From: Gallionellaceae bacterium
Lineage (GTDB): Bacteria > Pseudomonadota > Gammaproteobacteria > Burkholderiales > Gallionellaceae
Direction of reading: 5' to 3'
DNA length: 42,936 nt
Assembly: GCA_041659125.1 (NCBI GenBank)
Contig: JBAZYW010000002.1
Location: 1-42,936 of the forward strand
Shown: positions 27,174-33,873 of the stretch, piece by piece
How the letters are laid out: every line of letters begins with the position of its first letter
How positions within the stretch are numbered: the stretch's first letter is position 1
Notes under the pieces: model-generated
The model's database searches: none
What the model was told of the DNA's origin: nothing
What the model saw: only the letters and a program-made list of their open reading frames with translations
Program-made: the position numbers and the translations under genes

Positions 27174-28739
27174 ATGGCAACCATCACACAAGCACTCATC
27201 AGCGTATCGGATAAATCCGGCGTCCTCGAATTCGCCCAAGGCCTGCATCAGCTTGGCGTGAAAATTTTGTCCACCGGCGGCACAGCCAAGCTGCTCGCCG
27301 ATAACGGCGTGCCCTGTACCGAAGTGGCGGACTACACCGGCTTTCCCGAAATGCTGGATGGTCGCGTGAAGACGCTGCAACCGAAAGTGCATGCCGGCAT
27401 TCTGGCGCGCCGCGATTTGCCCGAGCATGTGGCAACATTAAAGAAACACGACATTCCGACCATTGATCTGGTGGTGGTGAATCTGTACCCGTTCGCGGCG
27501 ACCATCGCCAAGCCCGGCTGCACGCTGGAAGATGCGATTGAGAACATCGACATCGGCGGGCCGACCATGGTGCGCTCCGCTGCGAAGAATCACGCGCACG
27601 TCGCCATCGTCACCGACCCGACCGACTACGCCGACGTGCTGGCCGAGATGCAAACCAACAAGGGTGCGGTGAGTGAAGCCACGCGTTTCGATCTGGCGAA
27701 GAAAGCGTTTTCGCACACCGCCGCCTACGACAGCATGATCAGCAATTACCTTACTACGATCAGCAGCGACGGCAGCAAGAGCGAGTTTCCCGCGCAAATC
27801 AATTTCAACTTCGCCAAAGTTCAGGACATGCGCTACGGCGAAAACCCGCACCAGAGCGCCGCGTTCTATCGCGATCTCAATCCGGTGGCGGGCGGCATTT
27901 CCGACTACACCCAGCTGCAGGGCAAGGAGCTCTCTTATAACAATATCGGCGATGCCGATGCGGCGTGGGAGCTGGTCAAGACTTTCGACCAGCCCGCCTG
28001 CGTTATCGTCAAGCACGCCAACCCTTGTGGCGTGGCGATTGCCGATACCCCGCTGAACGCTTACAAGCTGGCCTACGCCACCGACACCACTTCCGCATTC
28101 GGCGGCATCATCGCCTTCAACCGCGAGCTGGATGTCGAGAGCGCCACGCAGATCACCGCCAACCAGTTCGTCGAACTTATCATCGCACCTGCGGCTTCCG
28201 AGGCTGCTTTGAAAGTGACGGCAGCGAAACAGAATGTGCGTGTACTCACCGTGCCGCTGTCCAATGCGCACAACCAGTACGACGTAAAGCGCGTGAGCGG
28301 AGGTCTGCTGGTGCAGACACCGGACGCACTCAATGTACAACTGGCACAACTCAAAGTCGTGAGCAAAGCGCAGCCGAGCAAACAACAATTGACCGACCTG
28401 CTGTTCGCATGGCGCGTGGCGAAATATGTGAAGTCCAACGCTATCGTGTTCTGTAAAAATGGCCAGACCTTGGGCGTAGGCGCAGGCCAGATGAGCCGCG
28501 TGGACAGTACGCGCATCGCCAGCATCAAGGCGCAGAACGCAGGCTTGAGTCTGGTGGATTCCGTCGTGTCATCCGATGCCTTCTTCCCGTTCCGCGACGG
28601 TATCGACGTGCTGGCGGCAGCGGGCGCGAAAGCAGTCATCCAACCCGGCGGCTCCATGCGCGATGAAGAAGTCATCGCAGCGGCGGACGAACATGGCTTG
28701 GCGATGGTGTTTACCGGCTTCCGTCATTTCAGGCATTAA
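27174..28739 (+). CDS. purH: Bifunctional AICAR transformylase / IMP cyclohydrolase
   Basis: [10 protein letters not shown] (MGS-like domain), [14 protein letters not shown] and a C-terminal ...FRHFRH. Confidence 0.97.
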
Positions 28740-28749
28740 GCTTTGAGTC

Positions 28750-28772
28750 CCCTCCCCCATGCAGGGGGAGGG
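28750..28772 (+). terminator. GC hairpin immediately after purH (terminator or REP-like element)
   Basis: CCCTCCCCC-ATGCA-GGGGGAGGG, a perfect 9-bp stem 10 nt after the purH stop. No U-run follows. Confidence 0.45.
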
Positions 28773-28888
28773 TTAGGGTGGGGGTAGAATCTTGCCGCAT
28801 CTCAACACTTTTATCCCCATCCTAAGCTTTCCTTTCTAAGAGGGAAGGAGCTTGGCTGTAGAATTGCTCTGTTGCAGTGAGGTGAAAA

Positions 28889-29125
28889 ATGTTACTCGAT
28901 GTTGTGAATGTAAAAACCACACCGGATTTCCAGCTTGATCTGGATTTTCAGAATGGAGAGCAACGTCGTTTTGATATGCGCCCTTTGCTAACCATGCGTC
29001 CTTGGAATCGCATTGCCTCTGAGCAATTGTTTCATCGTGCATCTGTTGCCTATGGAACAGTGATCTGGCCGGGCGAGATTGACATTTCGCCTGAGACGCT
29101 CTACGACGACTCAGTTCCGTTGTGA
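28889..29125 (+). CDS. DUF2442-like small protein (78 aa)
   Basis: GAGGTG RBS 4 nt upstream. The pattern V..V....DF.L.L.F.NGE.R.FD..PLL......L.....F....V.YGTVIWPGEIDISPETLY matches my memory of the DUF2442 family. Confidence 0.65.
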   Translation: MLLDVVNVKTTPDFQLDLDFQNGEQRRFDMRPLLTMRPWNRIASEQLFHRASVAYGTVIWPGEIDISPETLYDDSVPL

Positions 29126-29212
29126 ACATGTTGAGTTAGCGTCTTTTCGCGTAAGCTAACCTATTCTGATCTAATCGCACGACGATGTTCATTTACATGC
29201 CAAAGGGAAGTT

Positions 29213-30457
29213 ATGACAATTAGCGCACTTACAGTGGAAAACTTTAAGGGAATTGCAGATCAAACTGCATTCAAGATTCGTCCGATAACAATTTTTGTTG
29301 GCGCGAACTCTTCAGGTAAAAGTAGTTGTATTCATGCACTAGCTTGTTTGTCTCAGACTATAAAGCTTGGCGATGCCTCCTCACCTTTGGTTCTTGATAA
29401 CGAGAATGCTCAAGTTCATTTGGGTCGTTTTATTGAAATAGTGCACTCAAAATCATATTCGGATCCTATTTCTCTTGGTATATCAGCAGGCAATATTTCT
29501 ATCGAATTTGGACAAAAGCCAGTCACAGGTGAGGTTTCAGGTTCATATACTTTTAAAAGTACGAAACGAACACAAGAAATATCTCTTGCTAAAGTGATCC
29601 TAAAAATTGGGGCGCGAACGATAACAATATCACCAGCAAAGGGTGGTGTGTACAAAGTAATTGATTCGGTCACTCCAGGGGTTGTTCTCGAAGCAAAACA
29701 TGTGGGGAGTTTTTCCTTCATGCTGACAACGCCAAAGAACCCCACCAGCGAATGGTTTGCAACTTTTTTTGTATTGAGAGGAATACAAGAGCATATTGAT
29801 GCGCAGCTTAAAAAAACTCTTTATCTGGGCCCTTTTCGCAGACCGCCAGCAAGAAGGTATCCTTTTAGAGGTTCGTTGCCCTCAGAGGTTGGCGCACAAG
29901 GTGAGGAGGCAATTGCACTTCTTGCGCATGAATCTGTTCAGCCAAAGAATCGACCACACACTAAGCGAGTTGCTAAATGGCTTAAAGCATTGGGGCTTGC
30001 AAAAGCAGTCGGTGTTTCACGGCTGGGCGCATCAGATTTATTTGATGTGAGCATAACTCTTGAAGATGATGCTGCGTTGCCAATTAGCGATCTTGGATAT
30101 GGTCTTTCGCAAATTTTACCGGTTCTTGCTCAATGCAGTTTTGCTCCCCAAGGAGCAACCCTATTATTTGAACAACCTGAGCTTCATCTTCATCCCGGTG
30201 CAGCGCGGAAATTAGCGCAAGTATTTGTGGAGGCGACTACAGAAAAACAAGTCAAAATTGTTGCCGAAACGCATTCACAAGATTTATTGATTGCGATGAT
30301 TTCAGAACTTAAGGCAAAACGCCTTGCGTTAACTGACATTGTTGCCTATGAAGTGCAACGTATTAATGGAAAGAGCGTCTACCGAGAAATCATCTTCGTC
30401 CAAGATGGCGACGACTTTGAGGCGGATCATCCTTGGTTCAAGTCGCTTGAGAAATAG
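29213..30457 (+). CDS. ABC/SMC-like (AAA_15/AAA_21-type) ATPase with DUF3696-like C-terminus, no fused nuclease
   Basis: Walker A FVGANSSGKSS, YLGPFR motif, signature-like SDLGYGLSQILPVL, Walker B LLLFEQPELHLHP, and H-loop AETHSQ. AAGGGAAG RBS. Low GC: 39 of the first 100 nt are G+C by hand count. Confidence 0.85.
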   Translation: MTISALTVENFKGIADQTAFKIRPITIFVGANSSGKSSCIHALACLSQTIKLGDASSPLVLDNENAQVHLGRFIEIVHSKSYSDPISLGISAGNISIEFGQKPVTGEVSGSYTFKSTKRTQEISLAKVILKIGARTITISPAKGGVYKVIDSVTPGVVLEAKHVGSFSFMLTTPKNPTSEWFATFFVLRGIQEHIDAQLKKTLYLGPFRRPPARRYPFRGSLPSEVGAQGEEAIALLAHESVQPKNRPHTKRVAKWLKALGLAKAVGVSRLGASDLFDVSITLEDDAALPISDLGYGLSQILPVLAQCSFAPQGATLLFEQPELHLHPGAARKLAQVFVEATTEKQVKIVAETHSQDLLIAMISELKAKRLALTDIVAYEVQRINGKSVYREIIFVQDGDDFEADHPWFKSLEK

Positions 30458-30507
30458 TGTAATTGTAGTGGCGCAAGTTGCTTGCTTCACAATAAATTGA
30501 GGTTGTT

Positions 30508-33389: not shown

Positions 33390-33418
33390 AAAACCCGCCA
33401 GCGGCGGGTTTTGTTTTT
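33390..33418 (+). terminator. Rho-independent terminator of hemF
   Basis: AAAACCCGCC-AGC-GGCGGGTTTT followed by GTTTTT. Confidence 0.8.
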
Positions 33419-33488
33419 AATCGTTCTTTACTGTTGAAGGCGAATGTTCAGAGCATCATCAAAACGATTCTGACTCCACCAACCTTCT

Positions 33489-33683
33489 CTACATGCAATA
33501 GGTCATTTGCTTGCCAGCCTGATTGAATTCCGTTTGCTCGGGATAGCAATCATGCCTCCAGCAACAGCCCTCAGGCGCGCAGTTATGTACGCATTTAGTG
33601 GCATAACAAGGTGCATGACCTTCATCAATCTGGATCTGGCGGATAAGCATTACCTGAAGACTAGATGAATTGTTTTGTAACAT
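33489..33683 (-). CDS. Hypothetical small Cys-rich protein (64 aa)
   Basis: MLQNNSSSLQVMLIRQIQIDEGHAPCYATKCVHNCAPEGCCWRHDCYPEQTEFNQAGKQMTYCM has 7 Cys. AAAGGGG lies 6 nt upstream of this ATG. It sits in an AT-rich spacer downstream of a terminator-like hairpin. No homology recognised. Confidence 0.35.
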   Translation of the reverse strand: MLQNNSSSLQVMLIRQIQIDEGHAPCYATKCVHNCAPEGCCWRHDCYPEQTEFNQAGKQMTYCM

Positions 33684-33836
33684 TTGCATCCCCTTTAAGT
33701 ATGAAAAACAGTGGGGGAATTTTACAAGCCTGAAATAAGAAACATATATGCCAAACGGTCTATATATTGTTGATATACATCTATATCCTGAACAAGAGTT
33801 GCCTTGAGGATTGCACCGCAATCTATTGTTTATCGG

Positions 33837-33866
33837 TAAAATAAAATACAACCTTCGGGGAAGGCC
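33837..33866 (-). terminator. Candidate terminator of the sensor gene
   Basis: The minus strand reads GGCCTTC-CCC-GAAGGTT (5 bp plus 2 G-U) followed by GTATTTTATTTTA. Confidence 0.35.
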
Positions 33867-33873
33867 GAGCTTA

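Follow-up and report, generated by a model that had tools for sequence, protein, structure and literature searches.

In the 42,936-nucleotide (nt) stretch of a Gallionellaceae bacterium analyzed here (contig JBAZYW010000002.1, hereafter the window), an insert of low G+C content (GC) at positions 28740-30507 separates purH from purD over 1,768 nt. It holds one gene for a 78-amino-acid (aa) protein with a DUF2442 domain and one for a 414-aa ATP-binding cassette (ABC)-type ATPase. Our analysis makes it likely that these are two unrelated modules lodged in a variable hotspot, the first a decayed toxin-antitoxin (TA) module of the DhiTA type and the second a stand-alone ATPase cassette. An earlier note on this DNA had joined DUF2442 and the ATPase into one candidate defense system, a proposal that fails on the remnant of a toxin gene in front of DUF2442, the occurrence of DhiTA without the ATPase elsewhere, the absence of the pairing from all 24 loci of the close ATPase clade, and the discordant synonymous divergence (dS) of the two genes. 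As we picture the history of the locus, a DhiTA-type module would have lost all of its DUF4160 toxin gene except 21 nt, with a hairpin element taking its place, and a single-gene ATPase cassette would have been acquired separately and exchanged recently between lineages, probably by homologous recombination.

Composition and gene content of the insert

The gene order at the locus is dusB, fis, purH, the DUF2442 open reading frame (ORF), the ATPase ORF and purD. The features discussed below, all on the plus strand, are as follows (RBS, ribosome-binding site).

27174-28739, plus strand: purH, left hotspot anchor; 521-aa ORF, homologs to 95% identity with Pfam MGS and AICARFT_IMPCHas
28740-28852, plus strand: hairpin element at the place of the lost DUF4160 gene; homologous to the post-purH sequence of L171/L172
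28860-28880, plus strand: 3' remnant of DUF4160 (DhiT-like toxin) with TGA stop, from alignment to L006, L007 and L177
28889-29125, plus strand: putative orphan DUF2442 (DhiA-type) antitoxin gene, 78 aa; Pfam DUF2442
29126-29212, plus strand: spacer before the ATPase, left end of the exchanged block; inverted repeat GTTAGC...GCTAAC and ATPase RBS
29213-30457, plus strand: ABC-type ATPase (AAA_15/AAA_21, OLD-ABC), 414 aa; Pfam, PADLOC and AlphaFold2
30458-30507, plus strand: spacer with purD RBS, right end of the exchanged block, from the drop in identity to L006-L008
30508-31794, plus strand: purD, right hotspot anchor; 428-aa ORF

The insert stands apart from its surroundings in composition. 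Its GC is 0.441, against 0.571 and 0.564 in the 5-kb flanks, and the GC profile runs at 0.39-0.47 inside the insert versus 0.55-0.64 on either side. When the whole window was scanned in stretches of 1,768 nt (mean 0.560, standard deviation 0.026), the minimum of 0.438 fell at 28751, the position of the insert, and the lowest value outside the insert region was 0.516. GC at third codon positions (GC3) is 0.32 in the ATPase gene and 0.47 in the DUF2442 gene, compared to 0.74 in purH and 0.79 in purD. These measures agree with one another and with the earlier note, which had described compositionally foreign low-GC DNA between purH and purD from hand counts that proved exact (39 of 100 nt G+C at 29213-29312 and 66 of 100 at 27541-27640).

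The ORF map leaves just the 78-aa and 414-aa ORFs in the insert, each with an RBS-like sequence of its own (GAGGTGAAAAATG and AAGGGAAGTTATG, one for each gene). This is the gene content that had been read from the letters, and coordinates, Pfam families and motifs all match it. Overlapping ORFs within the ATPase gene (for example 29796-30050) were considered as partners and rejected, being not conserved in the related locus L006 (L-numbers are our handles for related loci and contigs). Direct or inverted repeats bordering the insert gave only short matches at chance level, a promoter and terminator scan was uninformative, with counts equal to shuffled expectation, and Rfam had zero matches over the whole window, with no ZTP or purine riboswitch detected.

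Loss of a DUF4160 toxin gene

The 78-aa protein matches Pfam DUF2442 (PF10387) with an E-value of 2.2e-13, scoring 50.7 bits against a cut-off of 23.9. DUF4160 and DUF2442, toxin gene first, form the dhiTA type II TA module validated experimentally in Dickeya dadantii 3937 (PMC8198452). Growth inhibition by the toxin, its neutralization by the antitoxin and autoregulation by the complex have been demonstrated only for that Dickeya module. The relatives of the window gene (83-94% identity) share this arrangement: in L006, L007 and L177-L185 DUF2442 comes a few nt after DUF4160. Unlike DhiTA, the window has no toxin gene, and its protein falls far below the cut-off of the NCBIfam model DhiA (NF048016), scoring 20.3 bits where 200 are called for. 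Since the protein has 78 residues against 160 model positions, and 20 bits against 200, we read it as a domain relative and not as a DhiA equivalog. No PADLOC model matched the DUF2442 protein and a PDB sequence search with it returned nothing significant; its close homologs come from Gallionella and Nitrosomonadales metagenome-assembled genomes. The exact PurH protein of the window had no database entry, but its homologs at 87-95% identity include entries with names starting 'Ferr...', and these together with the DUF2442 homologs put the window in or near the Gallionellaceae.

The toxin gene can be followed in relatives. In L006 and L007, whose ATPase is 96% identical to that of the window, it is intact, and the order runs purH, DUF4160, DUF2442, ATPase, purD. 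Alignment of the window with L006, L007 and L177 leaves only the last ~21 nt of DUF4160, including the stop codon (28860-28880), and homology to DUF4160 disappears upstream of 28860. The 113 nt behind purH (28740-28852) are the counterpart of a GC-rich double hairpin that stands directly after purH in L171 and L172, whose PurH is 95% identical. Its first hairpin has a 9-bp stem (28750-28758 paired with 28764-28772) and a 5-nt loop, the second is imperfect and lies near 28826-28851, and the whole reads CCCTCCCCC-ATGCA-GGGGGAGGG, then GGGTTAGGGTGGGGG, then the second hairpin. The main stem carries a compensatory T/A to G/C change relative to L171/L172. The element is present as a single copy in the window and has its counterpart at 6570-6690 in L171/L172; L006 and L007 lack it, and DUF4160 sits at that position. 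It could be a purH terminator or a repetitive extragenic palindromic (REP)-like element, and given the zero Rfam matches it is not a known RNA family.

A different deletion is found in L175 and L176 (L175:4364-4500), where DUF4160 is internally deleted, keeping the first ~60 nt and the last ~30 nt, and the DUF2442 gene downstream of it is intact, with a 211-aa ORF and then a putAbiC-like gene behind it. The DUF4160 toxin has been lost at least twice independently, by different deletions. Because DUF4160 is intact in the relatives and survives only as a 3' remnant here, the window DUF2442 gene is, by alignment and gene order, the orphan antitoxin of a decayed DhiTA-type module. The ratio of nonsynonymous to synonymous divergence (dN/dS) of DUF2442, 0.02-0.03, reflects strong constraint over the history of the compared lineages and cannot tell whether selection persisted after toxin loss. 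The orphan antitoxin is presumably harmless now, and it could still neutralize related DUF4160 toxins.

Variable cargo between purH and purD

The earlier note had proposed aligning purH-purD junctions of related genomes to see whether the insert is variably present. It is: among related Gallionellaceae contigs, one relative is empty and others carry different cargo between the anchors.

L173: empty junction with a 217-nt spacer; PurH 93% identical
L174: 251-aa ORF, then MazE-like and PIN genes
L171/L172: hairpin element followed by a minus-strand DUF2971-like gene
L179/L180: 245-aa ORF, DUF4160, DUF2442
L177: DUF4160, DUF2442, 332-aa ORF, MNT/HEPN
L178: DUF4160, DUF2442, two unknown ORFs, NTP_transf_2, 89-aa ORF and PIN
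L175/L176: deleted DUF4160, DUF2442, 211-aa ORF, putAbiC
L006/L007: DUF4160, DUF2442, ATPase
L005: ATPase directly after purH, then DUF4160 and DUF2442; the contig stops short of purD

The dusB-fis-purH context is common to all related loci, and at the far end of the junction in L173, L174 and L175-L179 lies the equivalent of purD, with GARS_N, GARS_A and GARS_C domains. The DUF4160 partner is intact in L177-L179. Judged by these junctions, the purH-purD spacer is a recombination hotspot that collects small TA and defense-type cargo, VapBC, MNT/HEPN and AbiC-like genes among it; our literature search found no account of a purH/purD hotspot.

In slot-border alignments of eight junction variants, conservation was limited to the genes and the purD RBS (TTGAGGT-type). 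An integron- or integrase-type mechanism was rejected, as no integrase, tRNA or att-like sequence was found at the purH-purD slot and no flanking repeats were present. Cargo exchange via homologous recombination through the conserved flanks would be the simplest mechanism.

The same subfamily of DUF4160/DUF2442 pair (DUF2442 83% identical) also occurs at argF-argG in the Gallionella contigs L181-L185, without an ATPase. There it lies between argF and a gene for an FlK-like thioesterase, with argG next (~4224-4737 in L181-L183). From these positions, the DhiTA-type module seems to settle time and again between housekeeping genes of biosynthesis.

Beside the TA genes of three purH-purD variants lie ORFs of 245-251 aa with no Pfam match (L174:6609-7364, L179:3429-4166 and L178:4784-5521). 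If homologous to one another, they would be another cargo of the hotspot.

Divergence of the two insert genes

Compared with L006, neighboring parts of the locus have diverged to very different degrees: dS is 1.53 in DUF2442 and 0.94 at the 3' end of purH, against 0.105 in the ATPase. Sliding identity between the window and L006, L007 and L008 shows the same contrast as a block of 91-100% identity at ~29120-30500, comprising the upstream spacer, the ATPase and a short downstream spacer, between flanks of 75-90% on both sides. Within the spacer at 29126-29212 identity to L006-L008 climbs from 75-90% to 95-100%, and just inside purD it drops from about 95% to 76-90%. The high identity of the block relative to its flanks and the contrast in dS together indicate that the ATPase cassette was exchanged far later than its neighbors diverged. 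Upstream of the ATPase start the window shares only the last ~30 nt with L005, so that the mobile unit would be essentially the ATPase ORF itself. On these alignments the block is clearly a recent recombination tract or an allele sweep limited to one cargo gene.

The ATPase and its relatives

The ATPase matches Pfam AAA_15 (E 1.9e-23) and AAA_21 (E 1.6e-21). Its translation contains GANSSGKSS at residues 30-38, YLGPFR at 204-209, GYGLSQ at 295-300, LLFEQPELHLHP at 317-328 and ETHS at 352-355. Its H-loop is ETH. It departs from canonical ABC ATPases at the Q-loop, with Arg for Gln (GPFR), at the signature, with GYG for SGG, and in Walker B (LLFEQPE), where Q321 takes the position of the catalytic Glu and E-Q stands for the canonical D-E. 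None of the motif residues varies among 32 homologs from several phyla, and dN/dS of 0.08-0.17 indicates purifying selection. Engineered EQ mutants of SMC, Rad50 and ABC ATPases bind ATP, dimerize and hydrolyze slowly. By analogy with them, the natural EQ suggests that the ATPase binds ATP, dimerizes and hydrolyzes slowly, acting as a switch or sensor and not as a motor. It may need no other protein and simply bind or clamp its target, or it may work with a partner whose gene lies elsewhere.

The AlphaFold2 model (predicted local distance difference test 83, predicted template modeling score 0.86) consists of a single ABC head that contains a beta-rich insert and ends in a small beta/helix element. 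The best 50 Foldseek matches of this model are ABC-ATPase heads only, and Pfam recognizes no nuclease, TOPRIM or HNH domain, in line with the earlier observation that no effector domain is visible. Among PDB entries Foldseek ranks the SMC head 5H68_A first, and the best matches comprise SMC and Rad50 heads together with PtuA and the retron-IA ATPase; a PDB sequence profile search led to OLD-family 6p74 at 5.6e-12 and AriA 8v46 at 2e-4. The DUF3696-like C-terminus that had also been suggested was not borne out, with no PF12476 match at E<=1 and DUF3696 in none of the 120 listed homologs by precomputed Pfam annotation.

Membership of the ATPase in the AAA_15/AAA_21 class, on which anti-phage systems draw, is confirmed by Pfam and by PADLOC matches at E-values of about 1e-45. 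Three PADLOC models are near-equal best: the HEC-03 ATPase (HEC-03B, PDLC04148) at 2.5e-46, Menshen NsnB at 2.6e-45 and PDC-M55A at 2.7e-45. The match to the HEC-03 ATPase model, 157 bits in two stretches, is no better than those to the other two. NsnB is matched nearly end to end (residues 3-394 on positions 2-317 of 345), with a score that is low for a true member, and the PDC-M55A match spans the full length of the ATPase. Weaker matches are AriA (1e-25), HEC-01A, Old (3e-15), GajA (1e-12) and PtuA (4e-10).

An all-library profile search places the ATPase in a clade of ~33 clusters at 50% identity, all scoring at least 357 bits, that spans beta- and gammaproteobacteria, Verrucomicrobiota and Planctomycetota. 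Full-length members have 402-439 aa and align essentially end to end, which excludes domain fusions. The next family scores at most 241 bits and is much larger (3,199 matches at E<=1e-30 in the same search). The clade appears to be sister to the HEC-03 ATPases and about equally close to NsnB by PADLOC score.

Likeness to each of the named systems is partial. HEC-03 requires both its ATPase and a small PIN toxin-like partner (bioRxiv 10.1101/2024.01.29.577857). The window ATPase resembles it in having the HEC-03 ATPase as best PADLOC match, an ABC head of the same type, and relatives at 24-39% identity that do come with PIN; it differs in that the window has no PIN gene and the close clade is set off by the large score gap. 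Menshen NsnB is the transducer ATPase of NsnABC, with 5H68_A as top structural neighbor (PMC12065111). The window protein has the same top neighbor, and like NsnB it replaces the Q-loop Gln by Arg and SGG by GxG and has a non-canonical Walker B. Unlike NsnB it lacks a C-terminal DUF3696 and has EQ instead of EN in Walker B, and the window has no gene for NsnA (ParB-DUF262 and ParBDB) or NsnC (inPIN and effector). With OLD, PARIS AriA, Septu PtuA and Gabija GajA the ATPase shares the AAA_15/AAA_21 Pfam families, without the fused or adjacent TOPRIM, HNH or DUF4435 of PARIS, Septu, Gabija and OLD. The composition of PDC-M55, a PADLOC candidate system, is not described in the literature searched, and a search for papers on a partner-less ATPase clade found none. 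The undescribed element is the partner-less clade only; the rest resembles a TA remnant and a sensor ATPase of the OLD-ABC class.

Neighbors of the ATPase relatives

We fetched 170 loci with relatives of the ATPase and analyzed their neighbors. The nearest relatives came only from the protein index; metagenome and genome scans gave no relative above 55% identity among the matches listed. Greedy ORF calling had missed the DUF2442 gene of the window itself, giving a spurious opposite-strand ORF in its place, and the absence of neighbors was hence re-tested in two ways. Narrow DUF2442 and DUF4160 profiles built from the local sequences, run against all ORFs on both strands of the 170 loci, found these genes only at the purH locus. 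Pfam searches of 54 small ORFs on the ATPase strand and no more than 500 nt away from that gene, from 24 distinct loci of the close clade (41-55% identity), detected no DUF2442 or DUF4160 and recovered both positive controls. DUF2442 and the ATPase are not found together outside one narrow lineage at one hotspot, contrary to what the earlier pairing of the two would lead one to expect.

No neighbor recurs among the 24 close-clade loci. What lies beside the ATPase varies by locus and includes Drt8 (E 4e-145), PDC-S60 (DUF4062 and a STAND NTPase), a TIR-like protein, PDC-S32 (AbiJ N-terminal domain), Zeta toxin, an N6/N4 DNA methylase, HicAB, DUF4145, GmrSD with HipA and NYN, and transposases. 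The close-clade ATPases sit in defense islands without a fixed partner. The ATPase probably acts in defense or genetic conflict.

Most of the distant relatives (24-39% identity) have a gene for a PIN-like protein of ~175 aa directly downstream, at 55 loci by clustering and 87 by a hidden Markov model (HMM). Because this protein matches PADLOC HEC-03A (E 4e-27), we take these loci to be HEC-03 systems. The HMM of the PIN partner had zero matches in the window or in any close-clade locus, and an HMM of a GmrSD_N/DUF262-like neighbor cluster found nothing in the window.

Many of the HEC-03-type loci (within L103-L170 and L024-L090) carry a third co-oriented gene for an RNA ligase of ~230 aa (Pfam RNA_ligase, E 9e-30), usually two genes downstream of the ATPase, at 25 loci by clustering and 41 by HMM (for example L134:4805-5494 and L131:7928-8617); no PADLOC model matches it. 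The set of ATPase, PIN and RNA ligase suggests a logic of RNA cleavage and repair that is unmentioned in the HEC-03 description. In some distant relatives the HEC-03 PIN is exchanged for a ~340-aa family (L088:9847-10863 and L085:9568-10578; cluster 2), and others carry downstream a ~180-aa family with a PIN-like 'VIDAS' start (L165:7307-7846 and L169:7290-7826; cluster 8). One representative of each of these two families was searched and had neither a Pfam nor a PADLOC match.

Alternative explanations

Several points weigh against two independent modules and a switch-like defense ATPase. In L005 and in L006/L007 the ATPase lies next to the DhiTA genes, in a different order each time, an arrangement that could stem from selected linkage and not from the chance sharing of a 2-kb hotspot. 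The DUF4160 domains at the C-terminus of some NsnC proteins are a precedent for a functional link between an NsnB-like ATPase and DUF4160 (PMC12065111). The close-clade sample is small, with 24 distinct loci and many short contigs, and the ORF caller was crude. The argument from the EQ Walker B is an analogy with engineered mutants, and E323 could take over as catalytic base; the share of fetched loci with EQ is also inflated, since FEQPELHL was one of the search patterns. The defense role of the ATPase clade is putative.

The first two of these points speak for the main rival, an ancestral three-gene system, Menshen-like or PARIS-like, in which DUF4160 would be the effector, DUF2442 the antitoxin or adaptor and the ATPase the sensor or transducer. 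The ATPase would sense infection and release or activate the DUF4160 toxin, and the window copy would be disabled by loss of its effector. All three genes are indeed adjacent in L006/L007 and, reordered, in L005; DUF4160 is the C-terminal effector domain of some NsnC proteins (PMC12065111); the ATPase has the NsnB-type changes at the Q-loop and the signature (Arg for Gln, GxG for SGG); and HEC-03 offers the example of an ATPase that needs a PIN toxin-like partner (bioRxiv 10.1101/2024.01.29.577857). We nevertheless hold a three-gene origin to be improbable, as the same DhiTA subfamily occurs without the ATPase in the same spacer with five other cargo sets and again at argF-argG, and outside this lineage the close-clade ATPases have neither DUF4160 nor DUF2442 in their vicinity. 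The dS of the ATPase block, about ten-fold below that of DUF2442 and purH, indicates that it moved separately, and the varying gene order fits independent insertions.

A somewhat slimmer chance is left for the ATPase as a decaying, functionless relic, an orphaned protein of HEC-03 or Menshen type that lost its PIN or NsnA/C partners. It has no adjacent effector, and the PIN HMM that matches 87 distant-relative loci matches none in the window or the close clade. Decay is at odds with the intact reading frame, the dN/dS of 0.08-0.17 and the nucleotide-binding motifs invariant in 32 homologs, as well as with a coherent clade of uniform length across phyla, and the recent spread of the cassette between lineages suggests selection. 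That DUF2442 is a dedicated partner of the ATPase in a new two-gene defense or conflict system we consider very improbable: the genes are adjacent and co-oriented in one low-GC insert, each with an RBS, and no named PADLOC system has such a composition, but in relatives DUF2442 is the second gene of a pair with DUF4160, and here the toxin remnant lies directly upstream of it, its adjacency to the ATPase is confined to one lineage in which L005 has DUF4160 in between, and the two genes differ in divergence and in GC3 (0.47 versus 0.32).

We raise tentatively, and with more doubt than conviction, that the ATPase clade (~415 aa) may be a self-sufficient single-gene anti-phage or anti-plasmid factor that dispenses with the PIN or nuclease effector found in its HEC-03 and Menshen relatives. 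The natural EQ Walker B might then lock the protein, with ATP bound, into a dimer that clamps a molecule of the invader or sequesters it, or the ATPase might act via toxins encoded elsewhere in the genome, for example of the DUF4160 type. Either way, a one-gene cassette would spread between hotspots by homologous recombination.

Another AT-rich region of the window

Apart from the insert, a stretch of ~480 nt at 33392-33873 of the window is AT-rich (GC 0.40-0.43), without a convincing ORF or Rfam match. It is flanked by a hemF-like coproporphyrinogen oxidase gene and a gene for a putative membrane-bound GGDEF/EAL-type signaling protein of 1,144 aa, with domains as read from its translation.

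Implications

Since the proposed DUF2442 and ATPase defense system is not a unit, a false lead is removed. What takes its place at the DUF2442 end is a locus that follows the expected order of TA decay, in which the toxin is lost first and the antitoxin retained. The purH-purD spacer, and apparently the argF-argG spacer too, would be an integrase-free hotspot in Gallionellaceae with a DhiTA-type pair in most variants. The slot neighboring the DhiTA pair takes alternative TA or defense cargo, and the hotspot could be mined for new cargo genes. If the ATPase clade protects alone, it would show how a very common kind of sensor ATPase works without a nuclease.

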